Position numbers and translations under genes: made by a program. A stretch of 64,000 nt of DNA, taken from Patescibacteria group bacterium. GTDB lineage: Bacteria; Patescibacteriota; Patescibacteriia; UBA9934. The notes below the pieces were generated by a model. It saw only the letters and a list, made by a program, of their open reading frames with translations. It ran no database searches and was not told the origin of the DNA. The stretch covers positions 76,766-140,765 of the forward strand of contig JBAQTB010000003.1 in the NCBI GenBank assembly GCA_049296775.1, read 5' to 3'. Below, piece after piece: positions 958 to 60,356 of the stretch (positions are counted from its first letter, which is position 1; every line of letters starts with the position of its first letter).

Positions 958-1085
958 GTGGATGCACATTGACGTTTTTTAGTGAATGAGAAGTAGGTGA
1001 ACGCCTGGCTACTACAGGCGGGGTGGTTTGTTGTAATTGTGTTTATGCGATCAGGCCGTGAGATTCATTGCTATACTGGTTAGGT

Positions 1086-3461
1086 ATGAAGCAATTAATC
1101 TCGTGTGTTTTAGCCTTGGGCCTGATGGTGACTCATGCGCCGGTAGCTGCGGCGGCGGTATCCGCGGATGGGGCGCTGGTTAAGGCGGTGGATGGTATAC
1201 AGGTGTATTTGCTTGAGAATGGCACCAAACGTTGGGTGTCTTCTGAAGAGGCGTTTGTGGCGCATGGTTTTGCTTGGAATGACATTCAGACAGTGTCGTC
1301 GTTTGAGCTAGACATTTACGCGGAGGGTGAGGACGTCACGACCTTTAGTGTCATTGATGTTCCGGCTACGCATGATCTGTTGCCAGATCTGATTCCGCTG
1401 CCGGCGGATGATATTAGTTTCAGCCAGATTAACGGAGCAGATGTTCTCAGATTTAGTGGGTTGTTTTGGAACAATGGCCCGGGAACACTGCGATTGCGTG
1501 TGAATAAGGATACATCCGAGTCTTATCAGTTGGTAGATCAAGTGGCTGGGGGAGTGCGGGAGCGTTTGGCTGGTGAGGTGGAATATCATGATATTCATTA
1601 TCACTATCACCTAGATGATTTTGGGACTTACATTTTGCAATCAGCTGAAGTGGAAAACGTAGCGAGTTCGTCCCAGGCCAAGGTGTCATTTTGTATGCGT
1701 GATAACAGTGTGTATGACAGCACGCTGCCAAACGCAGCTCCTTACGCCGAATTCACTAGCTGTTCAAATGTCACGCAAGGGGTGTCTGTGGGCTGGATTG
1801 ATGAATATTCTTACACTCTGCCGGATCAATATCTGGCGCTGGCGGGGCTTGAAAGTGGCGTGTATCAGTTGATTTTTGCTGTTGACCCCACCGGTATTTT
1901 GGAAGAACAGCGGATTGCCAATAACCGAAGTGTGACGCTGATTGACCTGGATATGGAGGCTCGTTCATTTGAGGTGCTGGCCTCTATCACTCCAAATGTT
2001 GGGTCGCGTCAACAGCTGGATGATAATTTGTTGCTGAAGGGTGACCGGAGTGATCGGGTGTATTTAACGTATGACGGCAAAAAACGCTTACTCTTGAATG
2101 ATGAGTTGCTGTCTGTTTACGGCCACGCAGCTGATGATATTTTGCAAATTCCGGAAGAGGCTTTGCAGTCCGTACCGGACACGCAATTTATTCGTGACAG
2201 CAGTGGGGCTATTTACATGCTGAATCAATACGGTTACGTGCGCCGTATCCTAAACCCTGAGGTGCTCGGGAGCTACACCACGGGCAATATTCCTGTGATT
2301 GCGGATGCGGAGCTGGCTACTTACAAAACCACTGAGTTTATCAAGCCAGAAGGTGATGATCGCGTTTATTCCATCAACGAGAAGCAGCTTGTAGGGCATG
2401 AAGGGAAGCTGTCACAATTAGCTATAGATCAAAGAGCGGTGCAAACGGTGAATAAAACTGACTTGCGATCCTATGCGGTTGCGACTGTCGCAACCAAGCT
2501 AGATGTGCCGTGGGATATTGCGTTCTTGCCTGATGGTGACATGCTCGTGACGGAGCGGACCGGTTACCTCAATCGTTTTGGAGCCGTCAATGCTCACATT
2601 AAAGTGCCGGGCGCGCTTGAATACGGTGAGGCCGGACTTTTAGGTATTGCCGTGCACCCAAATTTTGCAGAGAATCAGTATATTTATCTTTATTACAGTA
2701 CCCAGACTGGCGGCACTAGCAATCAAGTTGTTCGTTTCCGCTTGGATGGCGATACGCTGATTAGGGATAAAACGATTTTAGACAACATTCCAGGGGCCAT
2801 CTATCACGACGGTGGACAGTTGGCTTTTGGGCCGGACGGACTGCTGTACATTTCCGCCGGTGACGCCAGTGACAGCTCTAAGGCACAAGACTTAGCCTCT
2901 TTGGCCGGCAAGACGTTACGGTTGACGGCTGACGGTGAGATTCCGCCGGGGAATCCATTTGCAACGGCGGTTTATTCTTACGGCCACCGCAACGTGCAGG
3001 GGTTGGCCTGGGACGAAAGCGGTAATCTCTGGGAGGTTGAGCACGGGCCGACAGGTGCGGAATCTGGTTATGACGAGGTTAATTTAGTGCAATCAGGTGG
3101 CAACTACGGTTGGCCGCTTGTAAAGGGAGATCAACAACGGGCGGGACTGACTGGTCCAAAACTCAACTCCGGACCTAATCAGCAAGATACCTGGGCACCG
3201 GCCGGCTTGGCTTACGCTGACGGTAAATTGTATTACACCGGTTTGTACGGATCGCAGCTTTACGTGGTAACGCTCGCGGGTGAACACATTCAGCGGGTCG
3301 ATGATTATTTTGAGGATGTCTACGGGCGTTTACGTGCGGCGACCATTGGTCCGGACGGGATGCTGTATATCTCGACCTCAAACCGTGACGGCCGCGGATC
3401 ACCCGCCTCAACCCACGATTTGGTACTCAAAATCGCCCCAGGTTTACTTGAAGCGCTTTAA
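1086..3461 (+). CDS. Secreted multidomain protein: lysyl-oxidase-like (Cu/LTQ) domain + 3 repeat modules + PQQ-dependent sugar (glucose/sorbosone) dehydrogenase beta-propeller
   Basis: The ATG at 1086 gives the signal peptide MKQLISCVLALGLMVTHAPVAAAA. The segment HDIHYHYHLDDFGTY...AKVSFCMRDNSVYD...FTSCSNVTQGVSVGWIDEYSYTLPDQYLALAGLESGVYQLIFAVDP aligns with the LOX copper site and LTQ region (HQHYHSMDEFSHYDLL...KASFCLEDT...[22 protein letters not shown]). C-terminal motifs such as HGPTGAESGYDEVNLVQSGGNYGWP, LLYISAGD and GLAWDESGNLW are typical of the soluble quinoprotein sGDH family. Confidence 0.75.
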   Translation: MKQLISCVLALGLMVTHAPVAAAAVSADGALVKAVDGIQVYLLENGTKRWVSSEEAFVAHGFAWNDIQTVSSFELDIYAEGEDVTTFSVIDVPATHDLLPDLIPLPADDISFSQINGADVLRFSGLFWNNGPGTLRLRVNKDTSESYQLVDQVAGGVRERLAGEVEYHDIHYHYHLDDFGTYILQSAEVENVASSSQAKVSFCMRDNSVYDSTLPNAAPYAEFTSCSNVTQGVSVGWIDEYSYTLPDQYLALAGLESGVYQLIFAVDPTGILEEQRIANNRSVTLIDLDMEARSFEVLASITPNVGSRQQLDDNLLLKGDRSDRVYLTYDGKKRLLLNDELLSVYGHAADDILQIPEEALQSVPDTQFIRDSSGAIYMLNQYGYVRRILNPEVLGSYTTGNIPVIADAELATYKTTEFIKPEGDDRVYSINEKQLVGHEGKLSQLAIDQRAVQTVNKTDLRSYAVATVATKLDVPWDIAFLPDGDMLVTERTGYLNRFGAVNAHIKVPGALEYGEAGLLGIAVHPNFAENQYIYLYYSTQTGGTSNQVVRFRLDGDTLIRDKTILDNIPGAIYHDGGQLAFGPDGLLYISAGDASDSSKAQDLASLAGKTLRLTADGEIPPGNPFATAVYSYGHRNVQGLAWDESGNLWEVEHGPTGAESGYDEVNLVQSGGNYGWPLVKGDQQRAGLTGPKLNSGPNQQDTWAPAGLAYADGKLYYTGLYGSQLYVVTLAGEHIQRVDDYFEDVYGRLRAATIGPDGMLYISTSNRDGRGSPASTHDLVLKIAPGLLEAL

Positions 3462-13222: not shown

Positions 13223-13320
13223 GGAGGGATGACCGAGTTGGTCGATGGTACCGGCCTTATAAGCCGACAAACATTGCCTGAAAGCGTGTTTCGAGGGTTC
13301 GAATCCCTCTCCCTCCGCCA
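13223..13320 (+). tRNA. Type-II (long variable arm) Ser-like tRNA with apparent anticodon UAU
   Basis: The cloverleaf was folded by hand. Acceptor GGAGGGA/TCCCTCC, G73 and CCA are encoded. T-arm GAGGG-TTCGAAT-CCCTC. D-arm ACC...GGT. Anticodon stem CCGGC/GCCGA with loop CTTATAA (U33, A37). A 25-nt variable arm. Confidence 0.6.
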
Positions 13321-14415: not shown

Positions 14416-15984
14416 ATGTCTGAAATTACTACATATCCATTTAATGCCGAGCAGGTGGTGCAAGTTTGTGAATACCATTTTGGCATGAATTGGCCGGTAG
14501 TTTATATTTTAGAGAATAAAAAGGAGGTATACATTGGTGAAACTGTTAGTGCTTATTCTAGAAGTAGACAGCATTTAGAGAATTCTGATCGAAGGCGATT
14601 GAACAGGATGCATATTGTTACGGATGAAGAATTTAACAAATCTGCCGCTTTGGACATTGAATCATTATTGATTCAGTACATGTCTGCCGAGGGGTCGCTG
14701 GTTTTACAAAATGGCAATAAGGGATTGGTTGATCATAACTATTATGATCGTGAAAAGTACCAAGCCAAGTTTGAAACTATTTGGGACAAGCTGAAGGCGA
14801 TGTCATTGGTGTCTAAAGATTTAAAGGACATTAGAAATAGCGATTTATTTAAGTTTTCACCGTTTAAGGCCTTAACGGTAGATCAGATTTTAGTAGCTGA
14901 TCAAATATTGGAGATCTTGAGAACTAAAACTGAAGCTACAATCGTCATTTCTGGTAAACCAGGTACTGGCAAAACTATCTTGGCGATTTACTTAATGAAA
15001 AGATTGAAGGAAGAGGAGGAATTCAAGCAGCTCAAGACGGCTTTGGTGGTTCCGATGGCTTCATTGCGAGAGACTTTGAAAGGCGTATTTTCCTTTGTTA
15101 AAAATCTTAGTGGTGGGATGGTGAAAGGGCCGAGCCACGTTACAGATTCTAGTTATGATTTGTTGATTGTAGATGAGGCGCACCGATTGCATCGTAGAAG
15201 GAATATTGTTAATTACGCCTCTCATGATAAAACTAATCAGAAATTAGGTTTAGCTAATGACGGGACTGAGTTAGATTGGATTATGAAATCCGCACGGTAT
15301 AAAATTTTGTTTTACGATGAAAAGCAACATGTCAGACCATCTGACGTAACCCCGGCGGATTTTAAAAAGTTAGCAGCAACACATTTAGACCTACAGACTC
15401 AAAAGAGAGTGGAGGGTGGCGATGAGTACATTCAATTCATCGATAGCTTATTTAATGAGTCAAAAGGTTTACCAGCATTTAAAGATTATGACTTTAAAAT
15501 TTTTGATAGTTTAGAATTAATGGTGAAGCAAATTGATGAAAGAGAGAAAGAGGTGAAGTTATCTCGTTTGGTTGCTGGTTATGCCTGGGAGTGGATCTCA
15601 AAAAAGAATAAGGCTTTGTATGACATTGAAATCGATGGAGTTAAGTTAAAATGGAATAGCGTGAACACTGACTGGGTAAACTCTCCAAATTCAGCAAATG
15701 AGGTTGGCTGTATTCATACTATTCAAGGATACGATTTAAATTACACTGGAGTTATTATTGGGCCAGAAATGACTTATGATCCAATTAGCGAACAGCTAAA
15801 GGTCGTTAAAGGTAATTATAAGGATAGGAATGGTCATGCTGGTGTTGATGATTCTGCTGAGTTAGAGAGATACATTTTTAATATCTACCGCACTTTGTTG
15901 ACTAGAGGCATGAAGGGAACATATGTGTATGCTGTTGATCCGGAGTTGAGGGCTTATTTGAAACGGTGTTTGCTGGGAGAATAA
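14416..15984 (+). CDS. GIY-YIG nuclease domain fused to a DUF2075/Schlafen-like P-loop ATPase (SF1-helicase-related)
   Basis: VYILENKKEVYIGETVSAYSRSRQH (GIY-YIG). Walker A ISGKPGTGKT and Walker B LLIVDEAHRL. FKFSPFKALTVDQILVADQILE is typical of DUF2075. About 37% GC. Confidence 0.6.
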   Translation: MSEITTYPFNAEQVVQVCEYHFGMNWPVVYILENKKEVYIGETVSAYSRSRQHLENSDRRRLNRMHIVTDEEFNKSAALDIESLLIQYMSAEGSLVLQNGNKGLVDHNYYDREKYQAKFETIWDKLKAMSLVSKDLKDIRNSDLFKFSPFKALTVDQILVADQILEILRTKTEATIVISGKPGTGKTILAIYLMKRLKEEEEFKQLKTALVVPMASLRETLKGVFSFVKNLSGGMVKGPSHVTDSSYDLLIVDEAHRLHRRRNIVNYASHDKTNQKLGLANDGTELDWIMKSARYKILFYDEKQHVRPSDVTPADFKKLAATHLDLQTQKRVEGGDEYIQFIDSLFNESKGLPAFKDYDFKIFDSLELMVKQIDEREKEVKLSRLVAGYAWEWISKKNKALYDIEIDGVKLKWNSVNTDWVNSPNSANEVGCIHTIQGYDLNYTGVIIGPEMTYDPISEQLKVVKGNYKDRNGHAGVDDSAELERYIFNIYRTLLTRGMKGTYVYAVDPELRAYLKRCLLGE

Positions 15985-16004
15985 TCCGGTCGTTATTCGA
16001 AACT

Positions 16005-17501
16005 ATGCACATCACGAAAACGGATTATCTTGAATATACTTACTGTAAGAAGAATCTTTGGCTTAAGAAGTTTAAGCGGGAGTTGTTTGAGGGCGTTGAG
16101 TTGTCCGAATTTGAGAAGAAGATTATTGAGGAGGGCAATGCGGCGGATGAGGCGGCCAGGCATTTGTTTCCGGAGGGGCAGTTGGTAGAGACGGTGGGGG
16201 TGGGGGCGGCCTTGGCCACCAAGACGTTTTTAGAGGCGGGTGTCAAGACAATTTTTCAGGGAGCATTTAAGCATGGGGAGTTCTTTGTCCAGGCCGACAT
16301 TTTGAGATTTGATGCTGTTACTGGTGGATGGGAATTGTATGAGGTCAAGGCGACCAATGCGGTGAAACGGATTGTGCCGCATCATCATGTGAATGATTTG
16401 GCGTTTCAGAAATCTGTGATTGAGGCGTGTGGTTTGGAGATTAAGAAGACGGGGGTGATTCATTTGAATGGGGAGTATCGTCCGCAGGGGCGGCTGAACT
16501 ACGGAGAGTTGTTTGTGGTGGCGGATTTGACGGATGAGGTGTTGGAGGCTCAGGCGGGAGTTAAGCTGCAGATGCAGGATTTAAAGACGTATTTGAGTTT
16601 GCCGGAGGAGCGGGGGTGTGAGTGTTTGTACCGGGGGCGGAATGCCCAGTGCACTACTTTTGCGTATTCCAATCCGGAGGTGCCGGAGTATTCTGTGCAT
16701 GACATTAGTCGGATTGGGGGGAGTAAGAAGTTGTTTTTTGATTGGATTGACCGGGGGATTTATGCGCTTAATGACATTGATAATCCTGAGAAATTGACTG
16801 GGTCCAAGCGGTCACAGTATGACGCGTACATGCTGGGCCGGCCGCTCATTGATCAGACGGGGATTAAGCAGGCCTTGGACGGTTTACAGTTCCCGCTGTA
16901 CTTCTTTGATTATGAAGGTTACTCCTCGGCCATTCCGCGGTTTGATGGTTTTGGCACGTATGAGCAGGTACCGTTTCAGTATTCACTCCACATTCTGCAT
17001 GCAGATGGGGAGATGGAGCACAAAGAGTTTTTGATTACAGATTTATCTCAAGATTTAACTTTGCCGTTAGTGGAGCAGATGAGGCGGGATTTTGGGGAGA
17101 CTGGTTCTGTGATTTCTTGGTATAAGTCTTACGAATCACAGCGCAACACTAAGTTGGCAGAATTGCATCCTAGCCACGCCGAGTTTTTGGAGGCCTTGAA
17201 TGACCGCATGTTTGACTTGATGACGATTTTTTCAACTGATCTGTATGTGGATGCGGCCTTTAAGGGGAGTGCGAGTATCAAAAAGGTTTTGCCAGTGCTA
17301 GTCCCAGAGTTGAGCTACAAGGTGTTGAAGGTGCAGAAAGGAGATCAAGCCATTGAGCGTTGGGAAAAGATGATCGCTGCTGACACATCCCCATCAGACA
17401 AAGCCCAAATCGCCCAAGACCTGCTGGAGTACTGCAAGCTAGATACCCTCGCCATGGTCAAGATTTATGAGGCTTTGAGGGGTATATACTCAGGGATATG
17501 A
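16005..17501 (+). CDS. Cas4/RecB-like PD-(D/E)xK nuclease fused to a DEDD-type 3'-5' exonuclease-like (DUF2779-like) domain
   Basis: ADILRFD...ELYEVK (D/ExK core). Cys residues YCKK and CECLYRGRNAQC. C-terminal FFDYEGYS (Exo I DxE) and EYCKLDTLAMVKIY (Exo III YxxxD). An alternative GTG start at 15966 would overlap the upstream gene by 19 nt. Confidence 0.5.
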   Translation: MHITKTDYLEYTYCKKNLWLKKFKRELFEGVELSEFEKKIIEEGNAADEAARHLFPEGQLVETVGVGAALATKTFLEAGVKTIFQGAFKHGEFFVQADILRFDAVTGGWELYEVKATNAVKRIVPHHHVNDLAFQKSVIEACGLEIKKTGVIHLNGEYRPQGRLNYGELFVVADLTDEVLEAQAGVKLQMQDLKTYLSLPEERGCECLYRGRNAQCTTFAYSNPEVPEYSVHDISRIGGSKKLFFDWIDRGIYALNDIDNPEKLTGSKRSQYDAYMLGRPLIDQTGIKQALDGLQFPLYFFDYEGYSSAIPRFDGFGTYEQVPFQYSLHILHADGEMEHKEFLITDLSQDLTLPLVEQMRRDFGETGSVISWYKSYESQRNTKLAELHPSHAEFLEALNDRMFDLMTIFSTDLYVDAAFKGSASIKKVLPVLVPELSYKVLKVQKGDQAIERWEKMIAADTSPSDKAQIAQDLLEYCKLDTLAMVKIYEALRGIYSGI

Positions 17502-25266: not shown

Positions 25267-25310
25267 GGCACGGCGTTCGTGAACGCCGTGCCTTGACTTT
25301 TAAGTATTTT
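25267..25310 (+). terminator. Rho-independent terminator
   Basis: Perfect hairpin ggcacggcgttcgtgaacgccgtgcc followed by a T-run. Confidence 0.7.
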
Positions 25311-25353
25311 TTTGCTAAATTACTCAGTTGGCTATTGTCAACGGGAGGTCGCT

Positions 25354-26001
25354 TTGAATTCAAACCAACAGATCACCAAGCTCATCCACGGCGTGTTCAA
25401 CCGCGCTGACGACGTCCTTGAGGCCACCCTCAAGCGTCTCGTCGAGAAGGGCTTCATGGTTGACCAGTTCACCTGGATCGGTTCCGAGACCCCGTTCGAC
25501 TTCACTGAGGACATCGAGGTCGTGGTCGCGCTTGATGTGATGCTTGGCGACCTCAAGTCCACTATCGAGTTCGCCTACGAGTGGGCGGCCGAAGGACAGG
25601 AAAACGGCGGCTGGCGCTGGAAAGATCTCAGTACCGACCCGGATAAACTCCGTCTTCTGCAGGGTTCCGTGGCCTTCAAGCCGATGACCCTACGCTGGCG
25701 TCGGATCAAGCTCAACGCGAACGTCGACAAGAAGCCGATCGACGTGCGGAGCCCCGAGGCGTCCCCCGGTACCGTCCTCGTCTTCGTCGCCGCTCAGCAC
25801 CCCACTCGGGTGAAGGCGACGGACTACGTGAAGCGGTTCGGCTGGTTCGTCCCCGGTCTCGAGTGCACTGGGCCCGACTACGGGCCGTGGCGGCGCGTGC
25901 TCTGCGTCAACTTCTACCAGCACGATCGCCGGGTGGGGCTGTACGGACTCTGGCACGACGACAGCCGCATCTATCTGGCCGTTCCCGTCTTTCTGGAGTA
26001 G
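25354..26001 (+). CDS. Hypothetical protein, high-GC (about 62%) atypical gene; probable TTG start with GGGAGG RBS
   Basis: The ORF has a GC content that contrasts strongly with its flanks. It is followed by a long imperfect hairpin terminator at 26103..26170. Confidence 0.35.
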   Translation: MNSNQQITKLIHGVFNRADDVLEATLKRLVEKGFMVDQFTWIGSETPFDFTEDIEVVVALDVMLGDLKSTIEFAYEWAAEGQENGGWRWKDLSTDPDKLRLLQGSVAFKPMTLRWRRIKLNANVDKKPIDVRSPEASPGTVLVFVAAQHPTRVKATDYVKRFGWFVPGLECTGPDYGPWRRVLCVNFYQHDRRVGLYGLWHDDSRIYLAVPVFLE

Positions 26002-26257
26002 GGCACTCGGTACTAGGAAGCTTTGCGCTCGGGAGTCTTGGACCTTTGGTCCTTGGCTCCCGTCCGCGAAATGGTGAAGACACTGGTTGAACCGACGTCT
26101 CTAAGACACCCAGAAAATACTAGCCCAAACAGTGGGCAGTATTCTCCTCCGGGTGTCTTTTCTTTTTCTCTAATCTTCATTTAGCGACGGGCGCCCTGTT
26201 TACTAAAAGCCGTAATCGACCTAGACTTAGACTAACTAACCCATTAACTAAGAGCTT

Positions 26258-52020: not shown

Positions 52021-52053
52021 GCTTGTAATTATCTTTATTCTCTACAAATAAAA

Positions 52054-52135
52054 CAAAAAGCACCTGTACGGCAGTGAGCAGATGCTCTTTGCCACGCAGG
52101 TGCGTGAGGGGGTCTAGACGTCGGTCGGTGGTTTT
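52054..52135 (-). repeat. Terminator-hairpin repeat, family variant 1 (copy 1)
   Basis: aaaaagcacctgtacggcagtgagcagatgctctttgccacgcaggtgcgtgagggggtctagacgtcggtcgg is about 80 nt identical to 53074..53150. It overlaps the stop of the minus gene 52114..52329. Confidence 0.7.
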
Positions 52136-52329
52136 TTCAGCATGTGAATGTAGGACTGGCCGCCCATGAGCATTCCCCATGAGAAGGCAACCATTACGAG
52201 AAGCAGGGTGTACATCCATTTTTCCAGGATGGTTTCGCTGTACACAGCAGTCGTCGCCGTGGAGATCACTTGGACTGGTAGTAGGATTACGATCATCACC
52301 CACATTAGGATGCTATCTATATCCTTCAC
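52114..52329 (-). CDS. Small membrane protein (71 aa)
   Basis: Two TM helices. The C-terminal codons (KKPPTDV*) lie inside the repeat. Confidence 0.35.
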   Translation of the reverse strand: MKDIDSILMWVMIVILLPVQVISTATTAVYSETILEKWMYTLLLVMVAFSWGMLMGGQSYIHMLKKPPTDV

Positions 52330-52627
52330 GTTTACCTCCTAAGAGTGAGTTCAGTAGAGCGTTTCGAGCTCCACCATACGAATCCTGACAATAAAACATT
52401 CAGGACGTGTCACTATAGCATAAAACATGTCTTTGTCAATATAGAAACCCGAGGCTCCCATAGCGCACCTGAGTGCGGATAATGCTATGATTTGGGTATT
52501 AAGGAGAGTTATTTAGCTTGACAAAGACAGAAATTTTGCTATCTTTAGTTATATTCAGGAGAGTCACGTAAACCTTATCATTGAGACATTGTAAAGTTTA
52601 CGGGGTTCTTCTTCCCCGGGAGTAGTC

Positions 52628-52969
52628 ATGCGATTTATTGCGACGCTGTTCGTGGTCGTCGGCTGCGTCAAGCATGCCGATAGGATCGATCCGTACAAGG
52701 ATCTCTTTGTAGCCGTCACTGACGAGCCTGAGGTGAGCACGGCACCGACGGAAGCCGTCGATGATGCCGAGTCCGCGCCGGTCAGTCAAGACCAGACCGA
52801 GTACGGCGATTGCGACACCACGGTGATGCTGCCCGCAGATAACGCCGAGACTGAGGGTCTCGATGACTGCGGTTCCGGGCCGTACATCAGGCCTGCTGGT
52901 GACATGACCGCAAGACAGAAACGTAAAAGGCGCGATTCTTACAGAGACCTCTGGGTGAATATCCAGTAG
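52628..52969 (+). CDS. Putative lipoprotein, acidic
   Basis: LFVVVGC lipobox-like. About 58% GC. Confidence 0.35.
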   Translation: MRFIATLFVVVGCVKHADRIDPYKDLFVAVTDEPEVSTAPTEAVDDAESAPVSQDQTEYGDCDTTVMLPADNAETEGLDDCGSGPYIRPAGDMTARQKRKRRDSYRDLWVNIQ

Positions 52970-53073
52970 CCTACGAGCGCAACCTGCACCCGCGCGAGTC
53001 CAAGGAACACATTACTGTGTCTCCCAAAACTCGCCGGGTGCGTTTTTTATTTACACTTGATTTATTGTTGTTA

Positions 53074-53150
53074 AACAAAAAGCACCTGTACGGCAGTGAG
53101 CAGATGCTCTTTGCCACGCAGGTGCGTGAGGGGGTCTAGACGTCGGTCGG
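53074..53150 (-). repeat. Terminator-hairpin repeat, family variant 1 (copy 2)
   Basis: Near-identical to 52054..52135. It lies 30 nt downstream of the stop of 53185..53574. Confidence 0.7.
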
Positions 53151-53184
53151 CGGCGGTTGTACGCGCACGTTCGCTTATGGTCGA

Positions 53185-53574
53185 TCAGCGTTGCCACGTA
53201 TTACAGAAGATATTTGAACTCGCACAGACGAGTATGAGCGAGCGCTCATCGTAGGTGCCGATGTAGGTCAGCTCGCCGTCGCCAGTGCTGACTGCGTCGA
53301 AGACCTTGTACGCGGGGTAGTCCTTATGACGACAGTAGGCCAACTCGCGCAGCTCCTCAGGGTAGTCGTGAAGGCGACAATAGGCCGACTGGCGAGTGTC
53401 TACGATCAAGCATGGCTGGTAGCCCGATTCGTAGATGCCCTGACAAGTTTCCTTGTCCCCGTGCCATTGTTCCGAGACCATCTCAGCGCACACCTCTCTG
53501 GGGCTGTACCACAAGCCACCAAAGATACACGAGCCACAGCAGATAATGAAAATGCCAATGATCCACTTTTCCAT
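53185..53574 (-). CDS. Cys-rich small secreted protein (10 Cys)
   Basis: N-terminal hydrophobic signal, then C-x-C patterns. Confidence 0.4.
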   Translation of the reverse strand: MEKWIIGIFIICCGSCIFGGLWYSPREVCAEMVSEQWHGDKETCQGIYESGYQPCLIVDTRQSAYCRLHDYPEELRELAYCRHKDYPAYKVFDAVSTGDGELTYIGTYDERSLILVCASSNIFCNTWQR

Positions 53575-53733
53575 GAAACCTCCAATGGTGGGGTTGTGAA
53601 GAGCGACGTAAATGACGCCGTTCGACCAGGCAACGTACTCTTAGGTTTAGATTTTGTCAATGTTTACGTAGTGCCGTCAAAAAGAAAAGGGCCGCAACGG
53701 TGAGGTAGCGGCCCAGAGAGCTCCGTTAGAAGC

Positions 53734-54369
53734 TTAGGTAGACTGGCGTGCGCGGAACTCGCGTCCTTTGCCGAGGTCCATGTTGATTGGGATATTTTGC
53801 TCACAGAGCGGGCACGTGGATTCGTCGTAAGTGACGAGTTGCATGTTCAAGAGGGCGATGAGTTTGGGGACATCGGCCACGTCTGACGGCGTGACGTCTC
53901 CGCGGTTACACAGCACACCGAGACCGACGACGTGGCCACCGATGGCGCGTGTAGCTTCAATCACTTTTTTGGCGGAGCCGCCGGTGGTCAGGATATCCTC
54001 TACCACCAACACATTTTTGCCGGCGATGAGCTGGTCGTAGCCGCGCTTGATAATAAACGTTTTGCCATCTTCGGCTTTTTCGGCGTAGACCGCCAGGACT
54101 CGGTGGCCCAACATCTCGGTGAGGTGATGAGCTGTCCATTGGGACAGAATGACGCCACCAATAGCCGGTGCAATAACCACTTGCACCCGGTCGTCGGCGA
54201 ACTGTTCGGCGATGGCGCGGCAGAGCAGGGATGTTTCCTCGATATGAGGATAAATCGCGTCTTTGTTGACGTATGACGTACCGTGCCGGCCTGACGTGTA
54301 AACAATGTGGTCGCCCACAGTGAATGCACCAACTTTGCCAAGAATCTCCGTGACCTCGTGCTCAAGCAT
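53734..54369 (-). CDS. Type-I phosphoribosyltransferase, orotate-PRTase-like, with C-terminal CxxC extension
   Basis: PRPP-binding motif VLVVEDILTTGGSA. N-terminal FTVGDHIVYTSGRHGTSYVNK resembles the PyrE FTLKSGRKSPYFFN. C-terminal DESTCPLCEQN. Confidence 0.55.
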   Translation of the reverse strand: MLEHEVTEILGKVGAFTVGDHIVYTSGRHGTSYVNKDAIYPHIEETSLLCRAIAEQFADDRVQVVIAPAIGGVILSQWTAHHLTEMLGHRVLAVYAEKAEDGKTFIIKRGYDQLIAGKNVLVVEDILTTGGSAKKVIEATRAIGGHVVGLGVLCNRGDVTPSDVADVPKLIALLNMQLVTYDESTCPLCEQNIPINMDLGKGREFRARQST

Positions 54370-54487
54370 GACGTACCTCCGGTGTTGTCAACTCTAACAT
54401 TTAGATAAGAGGGAGGCGATTTTACAAAATCAAATCCAAAGCGTCAATGCTGAATAATTTACCATCGCGGTCAATTAAAACTTGTCA

Positions 54488-54555
54488 TAAAAAAAGAGCG
54501 CGTCCCATCGGTAGGCAGCCGAGGGACGGCTTGCTCTTGATGGTGACGCGCGAGA
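54488..54555 (-). repeat. Terminator-hairpin repeat, divergent family member
   Basis: aaaaaaagagcgcgtcccatcggtaggcagccgagggacggcttgctcttgatggtgacgcgcgag shares the A-run/GCGC stem/(t)cgg/ctctt/GCGCGAG architecture. Confidence 0.5.
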
Positions 54556-54557
54556 GT

Positions 54558-54812
54558 TCAATCGTTTGTCTTTGCGTAGCTACCGAGGATCATCATGGTT
54601 GAGAGAAATGACAGATGTGCTGCTGCGATGATTGTGAGTGGCTTGTTTGCGATAGACGAAGCGATCACGAACACGATGAGCGCAGCCACAGCACCGCTGA
54701 TACTCAATACCAATTTAATGAACCCGTGATTCATGCTGACTCCTTGAAAGTCGTACGAATTTGTTACGTAAGTGCAGCAATTCGACCGTGTAACGTATCC
54801 GCAAATTAGCAT
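54558..54812 (-). CDS. Small membrane protein (84 aa)
   Basis: Two TM helices. Confidence 0.3.
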   Translation of the reverse strand: MLICGYVTRSNCCTYVTNSYDFQGVSMNHGFIKLVLSISGAVAALIVFVIASSIANKPLTIIAAAHLSFLSTMMILGSYAKTND

Positions 54813-54910
54813 TTCGTCAATAGTTGCAAAATAGGTGTTGTGGAGTTTGTATAAACAACAAAACTGACCGCATGGGGCGGTCAGTTTTGAGGTATCTATT
54901 TGAAGATCGA

Positions 54911-55504
54911 TTAGAATGTTTTTAGATCAAAATTCAGTGTACGGAAGATTTGTAGCGCAGTTTCTTGCTCTGAAGCGGTGAGGTTACTACCGGATAATGA
55001 GAGTCGCTTGAGCTTTTGAATGCCAGAGATAAAAATCCCTGTTGCTCCATCGCCTGTAACTTTAGGGACAAATATTTTTGCAGTGTAACCGTTGATGATC
55101 TCGTCGGTGACGATATAGTTAGGGTTATCGTCTCCTGGAAATGAACTGGAATACATACCGTAATCAAACCTTAGACTGACGCCGTTGCCGACGAATTCGC
55201 CTACTTGTGAATCGTAGCCTTGTAGCGCATTGAATTTCCATCCAGGTGGTAATGAGACTCTGAAGACGCCAGTATCAATTATCTGCCAGCTAGTTGGCGT
55301 GGGGGAGTCATCCGAAGGAACGGTTGTAGTATCAGGTGTAGTTGGGATGTTTTCTGTGTCCTGATCAACCACGGGTACATTTGTATCCGTCACGACTGAC
55401 GATCGATCTGCCTGCTTTTGCCATACATAAATACCGCCAATTATAATAAGGGCAGTGATAGCAGCCGCTAGGACGATTTTTGACGTCTGTGATTGCATAA
55501 TCAA
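54911..55504 (-). CDS. Membrane-anchored/secreted hypothetical protein
   Basis: An N-terminal TM segment. A bidirectional hairpin terminator lies at 54858..54890. Confidence 0.4.
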   Translation of the reverse strand: MIMQSQTSKIVLAAAITALIIIGGIYVWQKQADRSSVVTDTNVPVVDQDTENIPTTPDTTTVPSDDSPTPTSWQIIDTGVFRVSLPPGWKFNALQGYDSQVGEFVGNGVSLRFDYGMYSSSFPGDDNPNYIVTDEIINGYTAKIFVPKVTGDGATGIFISGIQKLKRLSLSGSNLTASEQETALQIFRTLNFDLKTF

Positions 55505-55626
55505 GCTAATTAGGACTCAATTGAGCCTCTAAATTCTTACACCAAAATTGCCATTTTGTCAACACAAAATAGCCAAAAATAGCCAAAAATAGCTGTAAAT
55601 AGTGGTATTTTAGTGGGATAATTTTT

Positions 55627-55684
55627 AAAAAAAACGCACTCTACGGAACGCAAGCCGGATTGGCTCTTGTCCCGCGAGTGCGCT
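55627..55684 (-). repeat. Terminator-hairpin repeat, family variant 2 (copy 1, core only)
   Basis: aaaaaaaacgcactctacggaacgcaagccggattggctcttgtcccgcgagtgcgc ends 3 nt before the stop of 55687..56520. Confidence 0.7.
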
Positions 55685-55686
55685 AG

Positions 55687-56520
55687 TTAGTGGTCGAATA
55701 GACCGTCGGCGATGGAGATGTATGACTGCATCGCGTCGACGTCGATGCGGTCCTCGGGGGCTGGGGTCCTAAGACGACCCTCCGCGTCGAGGCTCAGGTT
55801 GGGAAACTTCTCGGCGAGCGGTCGGATGTCTTTCATGCCTTCGTGTGACAGTCCGCCCGCGACCCCAATGCCGAGGTCAGTGTGCCGACCACCGATGGCT
55901 CGTACGTATGCTTCGGCGATTTCGACGTCCATCGGGATGCCGAGTCCGCCGCTCGCATCGATGAGGACGTCGGTGATGTATGGTTTGTACCAGTCGAGTT
56001 CTTTGGCCACGCGCTCGGGGTTGTTGTCATGCACCTCTAATGCCTTGCGGTTGAGTTGGAGCACGACCCGCATGCGCTTCCCGATGTCAATGCGGCTTGG
56101 CTCGGGCCACGTCACGTTGAGCTGGAAGCCGTCGAGGTAGCGTCCGCCGAGATCCATGAGCTGGTCGAGTTGCTCGGGCAGGGTGTGGTAGTCGTCGCTG
56201 GCGTAGTGGATGAGGTTGACGGTCCGCCGGTGTGGTGGGAATAGTCCTACGATGTCGAAAACATTGGGGTAGCGATTGGGCCATTTGTTGGTCTCGCCGC
56301 GCAGCGTCTTACTGCTCGCCAGCACACCGACCATGAGTACTCGCGTGCTCCAGTTCGGCAGATCGTCGAGAGAGGCAAGCGCCGCCGCGACCTCCTTCTT
56401 TGTCATGAAACCTGTAACACCAATGTACGGCGACATTACAACCCCTTGAGGACGATGGGATATCGTCACTCTGTCGTAAAAACGACTTTGTATATTAACA
56501 ATCAAATATGCTTTTGTCAA
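55687..56520 (-). CDS. TIM-barrel enzyme with phosphoribosylanthranilate-isomerase (TrpF)-like motifs (tentative)
   Basis: LIDASGGLGIPMD and GIGVAGGLSHEGM resemble the TrpF LLDxxxGGSGxxFDW and LAGGLxxxN motifs. This is weak. Confidence 0.3.
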   Translation of the reverse strand: MTKAYLIVNIQSRFYDRVTISHRPQGVVMSPYIGVTGFMTKKEVAAALASLDDLPNWSTRVLMVGVLASSKTLRGETNKWPNRYPNVFDIVGLFPPHRRTVNLIHYASDDYHTLPEQLDQLMDLGGRYLDGFQLNVTWPEPSRIDIGKRMRVVLQLNRKALEVHDNNPERVAKELDWYKPYITDVLIDASGGLGIPMDVEIAEAYVRAIGGRHTDLGIGVAGGLSHEGMKDIRPLAEKFPNLSLDAEGRLRTPAPEDRIDVDAMQSYISIADGLFDH

Positions 56521-56574
56521 GGATTATATGGTAAAAATATGCGTAAATACCGATATTAAGGAATGATAAACCTG

Positions 56575-56675
56575 CTAAAAACAAAAACGCACTCTACGGA
56601 ACGCAAGCCAGATTGGCTCTTGTTCCGCGAGTGCGCGAGGGGGGTGTTACAGGGAGGGGCCGTCATCGGGGCCGA
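56575..56675 (-). repeat. Terminator-hairpin repeat, family variant 2 (copy 2, core + 45-nt extension)
   Basis: About 95 nt are identical (2 mismatches) to 57848..57945. The extension is read out of frame by 56663..57241. Confidence 0.75.
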
Positions 56676-57241
56676 GCTCGTGCGTCCTCGACGTAGTCGG
56701 TGATAAGCCATACTTCGGTGTCGACCGTGATGCGCCGGTAGGAGACGCTCTCCGACGCCTCGGGATTCGAGACGAACATGTCCTGGTCCCATCGACGAAC
56801 GCGCTCGACCACCTGGACGATCGAGCGCTCGCCATCCCGTTCGATGCTCACGATCTCGAGCTCGCCATCAACGCGAGAAGATCCGCCCCGCTCAGCGTAG
56901 TGCTGGCGGACTCGCGCAATCGCCTCGGGGTCGTCCTCGATGAGGAGAAACTCGGTCGTCGGCCAGATGCCATCCACGAAGTAATCGGCGTAGGCGTCGA
57001 CATCTCCCGTCTCAATGGCTGAGTACTTCGCAGTCACGACGTCTTGAAGGAAACGGCCTTCCGGGGTGCGGCCAAGCTCGTCAGCGTCACCGGGGACGAT
57101 TTGTGACCGTGACATAAGGTTTGAGCAACCAGTGAGGAGGGCGATAGTGGCGAGTAAGATGATCCCTAATCGGAACAAGCTCAGCCTTTGTGTGAGGATG
57201 TTGTAAGACACACCATTCCTTTGTTTCATGAATAAGAGCAT
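56663..57241 (-). CDS. Lipoprotein, hypothetical (3' end inside the repeat; possible frameshifted tail)
   Basis: Lipobox LLTGCS. It ends ...ARPR* within the repeat, whereas the paralogous repeat copy encodes ...ELGPDDGPSL* in another frame. Confidence 0.4.
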   Translation of the reverse strand: MLLFMKQRNGVSYNILTQRLSLFRLGIILLATIALLTGCSNLMSRSQIVPGDADELGRTPEGRFLQDVVTAKYSAIETGDVDAYADYFVDGIWPTTEFLLIEDDPEAIARVRQHYAERGGSSRVDGELEIVSIERDGERSIVQVVERVRRWDQDMFVSNPEASESVSYRRITVDTEVWLITDYVEDARARPR

Positions 57242-57847
57242 ATCTATTACTTACAGTAGTGATCATGCAGGTTGATTCGTTGTGTAGTTAGCTTTATGCT
57301 CCATTTCTAGGTTTTCGGCTTGAATCGTTCATTTCGACAGTCTACGCCTACACATAGTGGCATGCAAGTACCCGCGACATTCACTCATACCAATAAAATA
57401 AAGGTGCTAGCAGAGTTAAACAGATAAATTAAATGACCACCCCGATGGGATGGTCACACGTGGCGCTTGTGCGCCTAACTTTGTGGCGGATTATTCGTGT
57501 CGATCGACTGCTTCCACAGATACCCTGCGACATAGCCTTGTAGAGTGATGGACGCCAAGAGCATGAGTAAGAAAGGCCATTGTATCGTTTGGTTTAGCGA
57601 ATTATGCAGAATGGTAATCACAATCGACGTGGAGAGGATTTTCGCGAGGAAAGATGGTGTCTGCAAGGGGCCTCCCTGGTTTGGTTTCCAAGGGGGCGTG
57701 CCCCTCGCTTCCGAGGCTCTTGGACAAGCCAAGCGCTGCGAAGGCGAGGGCACCATCAAAGTCGAACATTTATGGTACTTGATGGGTTTGGGATTGTCAA
57801 GGCTAAATGGCCTAAATTAGGTGTAAATAGTTGGTTTTAGCGAATAA

Positions 57848-57945
57848 AGAAAAACGCACTCTATGGAACGCAAGCCAGATTGGCTCTTGTTCCGCGAGTG
57901 CGCGAGGGGGGTGTTACAGGGAGGGGCCGTCATCGGGGCCGAGTT
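57848..57945 (-). repeat. Terminator-hairpin repeat, family variant 2 (copy 3, core + extension)
   Basis: The extension encodes the in-frame C-terminal tail ELGPDDGPSL* of 57914..58336. Confidence 0.75.
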
Positions 57946-58336
57946 CGTAACGCTCGATGCGTCTTACGAGTGTGATGGGCGCTTCAATGCCGTCGACGTC
58001 GATGGCGAAGAAGGTACAGCCTTCGTGTCCGATCAGTACGTTGAAACGTGGCCATTGTCCATTTTTCGGTGCCGTGTGATTGAGGAGAGTGGTGTTAAGA
58101 CACTCCGTGTTCCAAGAAACTCGGTAGCCAACTTGGAATGGTCTGTCGGTCTTGGCCTCAAAGACGATCACCGTTTTCCAGCCCCACCACCGCAGCCACA
58201 GATGGTTCCACCACCGTGTCGGAGGCACGGTGCGGTCACCCTCCGCGGTGTAGCCTCGGCATAAAGTACTAAACTCTCGTTTTTTCCACACCGGATCCTC
58301 CGCAAGGGCAGCAAAACGCCGCCACTCTATCGCCAA
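57914..58336 (-). CDS. Hypothetical Trp-rich protein with repeat-encoded C-terminal tail
   Basis: ORF. Its last 10 codons lie within the repeat. Confidence 0.35.
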   Translation of the reverse strand: MAIEWRRFAALAEDPVWKKREFSTLCRGYTAEGDRTVPPTRWWNHLWLRWWGWKTVIVFEAKTDRPFQVGYRVSWNTECLNTTLLNHTAPKNGQWPRFNVLIGHEGCTFFAIDVDGIEAPITLVRRIERYELGPDDGPSL

Positions 58337-58491
58337 CGCGACAGATCAAAATATCACAAAATTATCCCGCTGTCAAAGCAGGAAGGTGCAATTTGATGGG
58401 AATTGCAACACATAGACGCGTGGAGGTCTTTTTGTTAATCTTGTTTGGCGATGTCTGAAAGAGCCGTATTACACCAACCCACGAGGATTCC

Positions 58492-58833
58492 ATGACGCTT
58501 GATACTTTAGATCAGCTCAAGGTCGCTGTTAGAGGCGTCCTCATGAATGCTCCTAACGTCAATACCGCTCGGAACTGGATCCGAGCCTTGCCTGGCCCAC
58601 CACTCAGTTCATTGCCGGAAGGAGCGCCTGCGCCTCGGGGCATGTACTTCGATCTCGTTGGAGAGATCACCGTTCGCTTCAATGAAGACGGTTCCCGTGA
58701 AGCCGTATTCACCATGATTACGGAACCTGATGATCCGAGTCCGCAACTTATAAGTGTCCGGTGGGAACCTATTCCTGGTTTCCTGACTCCGGAACAAACC
58801 ATAGTGGTGAGAGAGGCACTCTTCGGAAGGTGA
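58492..58833 (+). CDS. Hypothetical protein
   Basis: ORF followed by a hairpin terminator at 58868..58925. Confidence 0.3.
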   Translation: MTLDTLDQLKVAVRGVLMNAPNVNTARNWIRALPGPPLSSLPEGAPAPRGMYFDLVGEITVRFNEDGSREAVFTMITEPDDPSPQLISVRWEPIPGFLTPEQTIVVREALFGR

Positions 58834-58947
58834 TACGGCGTCAGTGTTGATCTGTGATTCTTTCCTCGCCCCGTGCGAACGACAAGCCCCCACTACTGGG
58901 AGCGTCTGTCGTTCTCAGCACGGGGTTTTTGTCTATATTCACAATAT

Positions 58948-59015
58948 AAAAAAAGAGCGCATCTGAACGGCAAGTGAGCAGATGGCTCTTTGCCGCGCAG
59001 ATGCGCGAGCGGTGC
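58948..59015 (-). repeat. Terminator-hairpin repeat, variant 1-like (copy 3)
   Basis: aaaaaaagagcgcatctgaacggcaagtgagcagatggctctttgccgcgcagatgcgcgagcggtg is homologous to variant 1. It contains the stop of 59015..59512. Confidence 0.65.
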
Positions 59016-59512
59016 TACTTGGTGGCAACGTAGCAGTTGAGAACGCTCTGGAAGGCGTTCGAATCATCGTATGTTTTGCGGTTCTCTGTATCGACGCCAT
59101 CGACGCGGTCTATCGTGCCGTCCGCGCTCTCATCGATCATTGTGACCGTGAAATGCCTGTCGAGTCCTTGCCGCTCGACCCCCACCATCGTCGCGAAGAC
59201 GACGAGGGTCTGGCTGCCCGAGGGGTTCAACCGAAGGAGGACTTCGGTGCCAATGAAGGCAAGGGTCGGACAGGTGACCTGCGCGCGAAAGGTCTGGGTT
59301 CCGCCGTCGGCGTCGGAGGGCGCGGTCTGCTGGAGAAGAAACACCGCCTTTTTCGCTGCTGCGTCGGCGGGGATGGCGGGCTCGGAAGCGACTGCGGTGG
59401 AGGAAAGGGTCAGAAAAAAGGCGCAGATGAACGGAACGAACATTGGAACTCCTGTGAGGAAGGCAAGATGCCATTCGACTAATAAAATACCAAAAAATAG
59501 TCCTTTTGTCAA
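59015..59512 (-). CDS. Secreted hypothetical protein
   Basis: Has a signal peptide. A consensus promoter lies upstream (TTGACA-17-TATTTT). Confidence 0.4.
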   Translation of the reverse strand: MTKGLFFGILLVEWHLAFLTGVPMFVPFICAFFLTLSSTAVASEPAIPADAAAKKAVFLLQQTAPSDADGGTQTFRAQVTCPTLAFIGTEVLLRLNPSGSQTLVVFATMVGVERQGLDRHFTVTMIDESADGTIDRVDGVDTENRKTYDDSNAFQSVLNCYVATK

Positions 59513-59540
59513 GGCAAAATCGTCTAAAATACAGGTTTTT

Positions 59541-59568
59541 TGTGACTTTACCGGGAATCAACTCCGGC
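59541..59568 (-). repeat. Degenerate copy of the tRNA-Glu 3' half (possible att-site remnant)
   Basis: tttgtgactttaccgggaatcaactccggc against the tRNA region ttggtgacctcaccgggaatcgaacccgga gives 21/30 ungapped identity. The core gtgacNtNaccgggaatc matches 16/18. Confidence 0.35.
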
Positions 59569-59636
59569 TTTTGGGTCGATGTTATTTCTCGTTGATATAA
59601 TTTGGCTAATATAGGCCAATAATATGCGTATTTACC

Positions 59637-59665
59637 TTGACAAAAGGGTATTTTTCTGCTATGAT
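59637..59665 (+). promoter_or_regulatory. Sigma-70 consensus promoter (TTGACA - 17 nt - TATGAT)
   Basis: ttgacaaaagggtatttttctgctatgat lies 25 nt upstream of the ATG at 59690. The same TTGACAAAAG extended -35 recurs upstream of other island genes. Confidence 0.55.
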
Positions 59666-59689
59666 ATGTCGTTACCATGAAGCTCTCAG

Positions 59690-60121
59690 ATGAGCCCTGT
59701 AATCCCCATTTTCTTAGAAAGTGATGGTTACTGGTCTCATCTGTCTTACCCCCACACCACGGAGCGAATCATGGAACAGCCCCTTTGCCCCTGCGACAAG
59801 TGTCGTACCAGCGTCACCCCCGACAACGACGCCCTCGCGCTCGACCTCATGATGAAGAAGATGGCCAAGTACGGCTTCGACTTCAAGGAGGAGGAGCTGG
59901 ACGAGGAGGGACGGTGGATGAACACCGCGTGGCTGGCCCACGGGTCGCGTCACCTCCTCCCCGTCATGGACGGCGAGGAGGTGGTCTGTGCGGGCTCTCC
60001 CAGCCGCGCCCAGTACATTGAAGGTCAGCCGCGCGACGAACGCGGCTTCATCTACGACTCCTCCCGTGAAGTCCTCCATCGCGCGGCCTACGCCCGCATC
60101 CAGAGCAACACCAATTCGTAG
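59690..60121 (+). CDS. Hypothetical protein (about 62% GC)
   Basis: ORF with a strong promoter. Several overlapping alternative-frame ORFs here are artefacts of the high GC content. Confidence 0.35.
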   Translation: MSPVIPIFLESDGYWSHLSYPHTTERIMEQPLCPCDKCRTSVTPDNDALALDLMMKKMAKYGFDFKEEELDEEGRWMNTAWLAHGSRHLLPVMDGEEVVCAGSPSRAQYIEGQPRDERGFIYDSSREVLHRAAYARIQSNTNS

Positions 60122-60281
60122 CCGAAGCGCATCGGCGCGGCCACGCCTTCAACGTTCAATCGTTGTGGAGAGCGTAGCCCGTCGGTGCGCTCTTTGTTTT
60201 GAACACATTGTTTATTTCGAACCACTAAACCGGCGCTTATCTTACAAACAAAAACAACCCTCCACGAGGGAGAGTTGTCTT

Positions 60282-60356
60282 TGGTGACCTCACCGGGAAT
60301 CGAACCCGGATTTAAGGCTTGAGAAGCCTCTGTCCTAACCGTTAGACGATGAGGCC
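60282..60356 (-). tRNA. tRNA-Glu (anticodon CUC)
   Basis: The reverse complement folds as a cloverleaf: acceptor GGCCTCA/TGAGGTC, D-arm GTC...GAC, anticodon stem GAGGC/GCCTT with loop TTCTCAA, T-arm CCGGG-TTCGATT-CCCGG, and an encoded CCA. Confidence 0.8.

Follow-up and report, generated by a model that had tools for sequence, protein, structure and literature searches.

A sequence-conserved family of terminator-like hairpins closing single-gene accessory cassettes in a Patescibacteria genome

The repetitive extragenic palindromic (REP) sequences of Proteobacteria, like the bacterial interspersed mosaic elements (BIMEs) and the REP doublets forming hairpins (REPINs), are imperfect palindromes found at gene 3' ends, where they can promote recombination as well as the stability or termination of transcripts. 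REP copies number in the hundreds, are frequently arranged in inverted pairs, and are accompanied by a RAYT gene and a guide tetranucleotide beside the hairpin. The attC sites of integrons are structured palindromes that close each cassette in an array of unrelated small genes, often with the stop codon adjacent. The DNA uptake sequences (DUS) of Neisseria and the uptake signal sequences (USS) of Haemophilus are 10–12 nt long, present in thousands of copies, enriched in core genes and embedded in terminators, and the Rickettsia palindromic elements (RPE) are inserted in frame inside open reading frames (ORFs). Intrinsic (Rho-independent) terminators consist of a GC-rich hairpin followed directly, on the sense strand, by a U-tract, and are found close behind the stop codon. 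Phage morons are independent promoter-gene-terminator units (PMC3594210). In this study we describe a family of hairpin elements of ≈65 nt in a window of 64,000 nt from the metagenome-assembled genome of a Patescibacteria group bacterium (assembly GCA_049296775.1, contig JBAQTB010000003.1, positions 76,766–140,765). We report the structure of these elements, their position and orientation, their enrichment in one island, the distribution of the family and the patterns of identity between copies. The elements are probably intrinsic terminators of self-contained accessory cassettes, copied non-reciprocally between the 3' ends of genes.

The elements share with ordinary intrinsic terminators the hairpin and U-tract behind a stop codon, and a pairing that is kept by compensatory changes. 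Unlike in ordinary terminators, the ≈65 nt, including unpaired bases and the TCTTTGTTTT tail, are 83–88% conserved across unrelated genes and genomes, and the hairpin is unusually long (≈20 bp in three tiers). The units that the elements close resemble phage morons: each has one gene with its own sigma-70 promoter and factor-independent terminator, a composition unlike that of its neighbours, and a position between genes that are adjacent in relatives. They differ from morons in being chromosomal and in forming an array of 13 beside a tRNA gene, with no phage genes among the ORFs scanned; furthermore, we know of no conserved common terminator for morons. As seen for DUS, USS and RPE, a conserved sequence is found inside terminator hairpins and the repeat can add coding sequence to a host gene, but the present element is 65 nt long, rare, tied to accessory genes without homologues (ORFans) and located after the stop codon.

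Read in the direction of the gene, each element consists of a CTC lead (in most copies), a three-tier GC-rich hairpin and a U-rich tail. The outer stem (7–9 bp, consensus GCGCAYCYG/CRGGTGCGC), the middle stem (5–7 bp) and the inner stem (4–6 bp) are separated by small internal loops. AAGAGC is invariant in the 5' arm, while the 3' arm contains CCGWW in six of the copies c1–c7 and CCATA in c6, and a T-run is found 3' of every hairpin on the sense strand. c1–c7 fold with energies between −26.6 and −33.9 kcal/mol (z-scores relative to shuffles, −3.2 to −6.7), and only 0–2 of 200 shuffles fold as well. The stop codon lies 2–11 nt before the stem in c1, c3, c4, c6 and c7, within the conserved 5' flank, and ≈60 nt and ≈28 nt upstream of the stem in c2 and c5, respectively.

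Two covariance models were used to search the window with filters off. R1 was seeded with six window copies, leaving out c3, and R2 with 33 family members, including the weak hairpin at 26094–26170. The model built from the other six copies recovered c3, and a degenerate family pattern matched six of the seven copies compared with 0.00 expected (100 shuffles). All eight strong copies are found within 8.2 kb. The other 56 kb of the window contain no strong copy with either model and nothing above 26 bits with R2, the best match there being 26094–26170. Strong copies stand behind 8 of the 13 island genes and behind none of the ≈60 other genes of the window (p = 1e-7). A preliminary description of this DNA, made from the letters alone, had listed seven terminator hairpins on the minus strand; all seven were seen there and are homologous, and the island enrichment that it had singled out for checking is present within these 64 kb. 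It had missed the eighth strong copy (c8) and two divergent copies on the plus strand, and the family extends to other Patescibacteria rather than being a purely local repeat. The architecture that it gave holds for the hairpin and T-run, but GAGGGGG, described for all copies, is found only in c1, c2, c5 and c6. Stop codons, which it placed inside several copies, are found in the conserved 5' flank of five but not within the stem.

All eight strong window copies have a co-oriented stop codon within 50 nt of the model start. The co-oriented ORF ends between −17 and +7 nt from the model start for six of the seven copies first listed (c2 at −48) and for 17 of 21 copies elsewhere. Covariation is seen in the outer and inner helices, with 70 cells changed on both sides compared with 19.5 in shuffles; none of 500 shuffles reached as high a value and all slid controls were lower. 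Behind an orthologous 249-aa gene the hairpin pairing is kept by compensatory changes in three genomes (GCGGGAC/GTTCCGT, GCGGGGC/GCCTCGT and GCGAAGC/GCTTCTC). The elements thus have what is expected of Rho-independent-type terminators, as the preliminary description had proposed, namely a hairpin and U-tract after the stop codon, both in the window and in 19 of the 21 copies elsewhere, and they probably terminate the genes that they follow. In c7-type elements (e.g., 58945–58958 and the loci of an alignment of 16 contexts) the U-tract is a conserved TCTTTGTTTT. Reverse-complemented, the sequence GCTCTTTG gives the invariant CAAAGAGC of the 5' arm, with which the tail TCTTTG is likewise complementary. 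One compensatory change supports this pairing and three copies break it. The complementarity between tail and 5' arm suggests an alternative or pseudoknot pairing.

Table 1. Elements, cassettes and associated features of the window. Positions count from the first nucleotide of the window; R1 and R2 are the two covariance models and L numbers are loci in other genomes.
Feature	Position	Strand	Remarks
Cassette array	52046–60202	both	13 single-gene promoter-ORF-terminator units; 8 strong family terminators, 2 divergent, 3 simple hairpins (53677–53724, 54859–54889, 57433–57457)
c1	module 52046–52115, hairpin 52060–52103	−	After 71-aa membrane-protein gene 52114–52329; stop TAG 52114–52116; fold −26.6 kcal/mol; R1 76 bits, R2 63 bits
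Divergent family-like long terminator	52974–53055	+	After lipoprotein gene 52628–52969; R1 17.4 bits before entering any seed; fold −33.5 kcal/mol; shares GCACCCGCGCG...CGGGTGCG with the family
c2	module 53068–53137, hairpin 53082–53125	−	After gene 53185–53574, whose stop ends 48 nt before the model start; near-identical to c1; R2 57.7 bits
c3	module 54486–54561, hairpin 54498–54551	−	After 58-aa membrane-protein gene 54558–54734; divergent, longer apical part; fold −33.4 kcal/mol; R1 16 bits, R2 32.7 bits
c4	module 55622–55693, hairpin 55633–55684	−	Putative terminator of conserved 249-aa gene 55687–56436; apical part common to orthologous cassettes in L058 and L060
Cassette promoter (example, predicted)	56492–56520	−	TTGACA-17-TAATAT with extended TG, for the 249-aa gene; position conserved in L058 and L060
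c5	module 56575–56646, hairpin 56587–56636	−	After ORFan lipoprotein gene 56663–57241; fold −33.8 kcal/mol
Copy of 45-nt 3' coding end	56637–56681	−	On ORFan 56663–57241 (without homologues), in another frame (...ARPR*)
c6	module 57842–57913, hairpin 57854–57903	−	After 140-aa gene 57914–58336
Native 3' coding end (...ELGPDDGPSL*)	57904–57948	−	Of gene 57914–58336; homologues end with the same motif (...D.PL.); source of the 45-nt extension
Three-tier long terminator, possible distant member (membership uncertain)	58858–58937	+	After gene 58492–58833; R2 15.2 bits; fold −41.2 kcal/mol, z −7.1
c7	module 58945–59016, hairpin 58957–59006	−	After secreted 142-aa gene 59015–59443; R2 82 bits; type recurring almost unchanged in other Patescibacteria
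c8	60117–60202	+	Long apical insert; after plus-strand gene 59690–60121; R2 28 bits, E 3e-7
tRNA-Glu(CUC), island border	60282–60356	−	In relatives the same tRNA precedes a serine recombinase (L054) or a type I restriction-modification system (L057)
Solitary cassette outside the island	25290–26170	+	Promoter, GC-rich 229-aa ORF 25312–26001 without Pfam match, long terminator 26094–26170 (weak family resemblance, R1 17.7 bits); two hairpins

The genes that carry strong copies belong to an island of single-gene cassettes beside tRNA-Glu (Table 1). A promoter/terminator scan predicted a promoter for every island gene (TTGACA-N16–18, often with an extended TG), and three of the 13 cassettes are on the plus strand. 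The cassette ORFs have a mean GC content at third codon positions of 0.66 compared with 0.53 in core genes (p = 0.001), and the spacers are AT-rich. Domain scans with Pfam covered 12 cassette ORFs and all window ORFs of at least 230 aa; one of the 12 cassette ORFs had a match, and no integrase, transposase, reverse-transcriptase or phage-type domains were reported among the ORFs scanned. Signal peptides, lipoboxes or membrane helices could be recognised by eye in several cassette ORFs. The solitary cassette of Table 1 sits between msrA and an SRPBCC-like gene, and no other part of the window outside the island has a GC content as high as its 0.564.

In two distant relatives the same tRNA-Glu is followed by a fragmented large serine recombinase (L054:11058–12704) or by a helix-turn-helix protein and a type I restriction enzyme (L057:11151–15039), so that this tRNA site is an integration hotspot for foreign DNA. 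A search across the island for further tRNA-Glu fragments that might serve as att sites gave one weak copy only. This stretch of 37 nt (59535–59571) is 78% identical to the 3' half of the tRNA gene (60277–60313), lies 742 nt away from it and brackets exactly one cassette (59572–60276). It could be a decayed att repeat from integration or a chance match.

The conserved 249-aa protein has 579 homologues and no Pfam domain. The 5' untranslated region (5' UTR) of its gene (56437–56486 on the minus strand; L058:166–216; L060:575–625) contains two small hairpins before the ribosome-binding site, GTCGT-TTTT-ACGAC and GACGAT-ATCCC-ATCGTC. The first hairpin and an AGAG spacer are conserved in the three genomes, and the second only in L058. 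This region may be a regulatory leader.

The family was followed into other genomes by a pattern scan of species-representative genomes and a second of metagenomes, which together gave 50 loci. The covariance model confirmed 17 of these, and four further loci were found by protein look-ups; the other pattern matches arose by chance within a conserved coding gene. The resulting 21 copies are found on ≈20 contigs, from Patescibacteria metagenome-assembled genomes (MAGs; one labelled Uhrbacteria) and from groundwater. As seen for the window copies, 19 of the 21 are located after the stop codon of a co-oriented ORF (at least 90 aa, stop within 50 nt of the model start). Apart from one orthologous pair, these ORFs have no relation to each other, and they are GC-richer than their contigs (e.g., 0.67 compared with 0.44 in L017). 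No Pfam family was found for nine of ten ORFs upstream of the hairpin, and the surrounding genes are housekeeping genes. Short arrays with two or three cassettes were seen in L041, L050, L037, L017, L016 and L060, while in L054 one cassette is inserted between ahpC and pepA. Alignment of 16 contexts gave a mean pairwise identity of 0.88 for the 5' arm, 0.83 for the 3' arm and 0.83 for the 10-nt tail. The flanks have an identity of 0.28, both upstream of −4 and downstream of +11, and share no common repeat. The module is therefore a discrete unit with sharp edges.

The motif is absent from the RNA family libraries searched. Rfam at its gathering threshold found only two tRNAs in the whole window, and with E values up to 5 nothing overlapped the hairpins between 51.8 and 59.8 kb except a 14-bit isrL match that includes the T-run of c4. 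A phage or plasmid origin was considered and rejected: scanning IMG/VR for the pattern gave no match, nor did BLAST searches of phage and plasmid records. Pattern matches in Acidobacteria and other groups were false positives, located inside a conserved protein-coding gene and without a hairpin. No recombinase recurs beside the element: 91 neighbouring ORFs were included in a Pfam scan, and housekeeping families only were found among the 25 of 99 families listed. In one groundwater contig from Hainich, an array of three cassettes is directly followed by a Cys-rich ORF (L041:2012–2859) that by eye resembles an IS1595/ISXO2-type transposase and seems to be split by a frameshift. Three loci come from MAGs labelled "uncultured Gammaproteobacteria" (L004, L007 and L012). 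These labels are probably wrong, since L004 is collinear with L016 and L007 with L014, both Patescibacteria loci, and L012 carries the element.

Several window copies are much more alike than their genes. c1 and c2 share 81 nt at 99% identity, in agreement with the near-identity over ≈80 nt given in the preliminary description for the elements at 52054 and 53074. For c5 and c6 (described at 56575 and 57848) the near-identity also stands, over 103 nt at 97%, but three mismatches were counted rather than two. c4 has an identity of 92% with c5, located 1 kb away behind an unrelated gene, but of only 75% and 65% with the hairpins of the orthologous 249-aa cassettes in L058 and L060, respectively. 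Constraint alone is thus insufficient to explain the likeness. The same trend is seen between genomes. c7 has an identity of 95% with the elements in L017 and L041, which are identical to each other and have unrelated flanks. c8 is 88% identical to L060:447–531, and both have the same distinctive apical insert behind unrelated genes.

The duplicated tracts begin ≈20 nt (c1/c2) or 45 nt (c5/c6) upstream of the module and end in the T-run. Such variable 5' ends, together with 3' ends in the T-run, fit a non-reciprocal recombination anchored in the hairpin rather than a precise site-specific or transpositional event. The 18 nt upstream of c1 are coding, and the same 18 nt upstream of c2 are non-coding. 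The 45-nt extension shared by c5 and c6 had been read as ELGPDDGPSL* at the end of 57914–58336 and, in another frame, as ...ARPR* at the end of 56663–57241, and both readings were correct. The repeat does not, however, donate the ELGPDDGPSL tail to 57914–58336 as had been suggested. Since members of that protein family end like it, the tail is native there, and it was donated only to the ORFan 56663–57241. A search for homologues of this ORFan, made with regard to the frameshift idea, found none.

Larger exchanges also respect the hairpin. L007 and L014 are collinear at 75–90% identity except for a non-homologous segment (1.1 kb in one and 0.5 kb in the other) that ends exactly at the 5' edge of the shared hairpin. 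In the three genomes with the 249-aa cassette, homology extends from the promoter region (from the 5' UTR in L058) to the T-run and then stops, and the neighbouring genes differ, so that the whole expression cassette appears to be the evolutionary unit. The replacement in L007/L014 and the likeness of c4 to c5 bear out the earlier suggestion that the modules are recombinogenic.

We consider it probable that the elements are sequence-conserved variants of intrinsic terminators that mark moron-like accessory cassettes and behave as recombination modules. Each cassette would consist of a sigma-70-type promoter, a ribosome-binding site, a GC-rich and mostly orphan ORF, a stop codon and the ≈65-nt terminator module. 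Thirteen such cassettes would have accumulated in a hypervariable island beside the tRNA-Glu of this genome of the Patescibacteria (candidate phyla radiation, CPR), and the same module family is found behind unrelated orphan genes in many Patescibacteria. The module would be copied from one gene 3' end to another, with the hairpin as the anchor for homologous recombination or gene conversion. This would take place inside a genome and, once DNA has been taken up, from one genome to another. Copying may sometimes drag flanking coding sequence along. This would account for the near-identical pairs, for the out-of-frame tail of 56663–57241 and for gene swaps that end at the hairpin edge.

Several points weigh against this explanation. 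Termination in vivo is something we infer from sequence and fold, and the folds of the sense and antisense strands hardly differ in stability (sense favoured in 19 of 30, p = 0.13), so that structure alone cannot separate a role at the RNA level from one at the DNA level. We infer the non-reciprocal route from two near-identical pairs only. Ordinary terminators are not conserved in sequence between unrelated genes and genomes, and recombination alone may not explain an identity of 95–100% across genomes in which orthologous proteins are 55–80% identical; an enzyme dedicated to mobilisation, or a partner that binds the sequence specifically, is possible. Copy number is based on 64 kb of the source genome and the loci of 1–15 kb elsewhere rather than on whole genomes. 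The taxonomic breadth is uncertain, as the records are labelled "Patescibacteria group", "Minisyncoccota" (the phylum itself) and "Uhrbacteria". Collections contain no close relatives for a strain-level comparison of presence and absence (the best homologue of a flanking protein is 55% identical), and exact-sequence look-ups gave matches from the same sample only.

A mobile hairpin resembling REPs, REPINs or miniature inverted-repeat transposable elements would likewise have sharp module boundaries with flanks at random level, and would explain identical copies behind unrelated genes in different genomes. The 65-nt module would then be moved by a trans-acting enzyme, e.g., RAYT or an IS200/IS605-type Y1 transposase recognising the hairpin and a short 5' motif such as CTC, and be retained behind genes because it terminates. 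The conserved CTC just 5' of the stem indeed recalls the REP guide tetranucleotide, and the preliminary description had called the elements REP/BIME-like. Copy number and arrangement speak against this likeness. The elements are few and single, with no strong copies in the other 56 kb of the window and one strict-pattern match each in contigs of 646 kb and 784 kb, a count that is limited by the strictness of the pattern. As many as 26 of 28 copies, and c8 likewise, are directly behind a co-oriented ORF, and none form inverted pairs of the REPIN/BIME type. The near-identical pairs carry upstream flanks of variable length, unlike what precise transposition would leave. No RAYT was seen in the scanned ORFs, no Y1 or other transposase in the large window ORFs, and none recurs beside copies elsewhere among the 25 of 99 families listed. 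We therefore regard a mobile hairpin as unlikely. A cis-acting RNA element in the 3' UTR, bound in a sequence-specific manner by a conserved Patescibacteria protein or RNase that controls the stability or expression of foreign genes, with termination as part of its role, appears somewhat more doubtful still. It would explain why the sequence itself is conserved, as seen for CAAAGAGC in an internal loop, for a nearly invariant G-U pair (23 of 32) and for the non-canonical tail TCTTTG with its complementarity to CAAAGAGC. The hairpins behind the orthologous 249-aa gene, however, diverge about as fast as the gene itself (75% and 65% identity), which argues against strong constraint on each base. 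In addition, the pairing of tail and arm is broken in several copies, Rfam gave no match, and we know of no partner protein for the element.

The array of small unrelated genes, each closed by a bulged imperfect palindrome with the stop codon beside it, and the gene replacement that ends at a hairpin edge are also what an integron-like cassette system would show, with a site-specific recombinase acting at a folded attC-like site. Here the stem base has no RYYYAAC...GTTRRRY pair, and thus no AAC/GTT cores, but the outer stem GCGCAYCYG/CRGGTGCGC; every cassette has its own promoter and both orientations occur. The duplicated segments lack a fixed junction, the break between L007 and L014 falls at the stem edge, and the conserved module includes the T-run as an integral part, as fits a terminator. 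The large window ORFs that were scanned gave no tyrosine recombinase or integrase, and none recurs beside copies elsewhere among the 25 of 99 families listed, so this explanation is very improbable. Least credible is an assembly artefact, in which the near-identical pairs would stem from mis-joined metagenomic contigs. Independent short-read contigs of the same sample do break exactly at c1, c2, c5 and c6, but such breaks are expected from a real two-copy repeat. The unique segments between the copies are present and connect in one order only, and the family is found in many independent assemblies. A diversity-generating retroelement, with a pair resembling variable and template repeats plus a hairpin, was rejected: no reverse-transcriptase domain was found among the large window ORFs, and the three differences between c5 and c6 have no adenine bias.

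Other features of the window lie apart from the island. A tRNA-Ile with anticodon UAU at 13223–13320 is 98 nt long, far longer than a normal tRNA, and may carry an insertion or intron. It is found in a stretch of low GC content (0.37–0.39 at 11–16 kb), where a GIY-YIG and Schlafen-type helicase protein followed by a DUF2779 protein (14416–17501) looks like a defence or mobile module. At 1068–3461 a 797-aa protein combines lysyl-oxidase and glucose/sorbosone dehydrogenase domains, an unusual pairing.

Little is understood of how Patescibacteria, with their tiny genomes and their dependence on host cells, acquire and shuffle accessory genes. The element provides a short, searchable DNA and RNA signature for horizontally acquired orphan genes, many of which encode secreted proteins or lipoproteins, in the form of a structured motif so far absent from RNA family libraries. 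This signature could be used to map variable islands in metagenomes, and the use of terminators as recombination anchors for gene capture becomes a testable question. As a more speculative idea, which we hold with little confidence, the hairpin might be the handle of a Patescibacteria-wide cassette exchange, a functional analogue of integrons built from complete expression units. The 65-nt terminator would then act as portable homology or as the site of a trans-acting enzyme. By means of it, these ultra-small and naturally competent bacteria could take up, exchange and lose foreign orphan genes at the hairpin's 3' edge. If it is true that a dedicated enzyme recognises the element, this would be a new system of cassette mobilisation.

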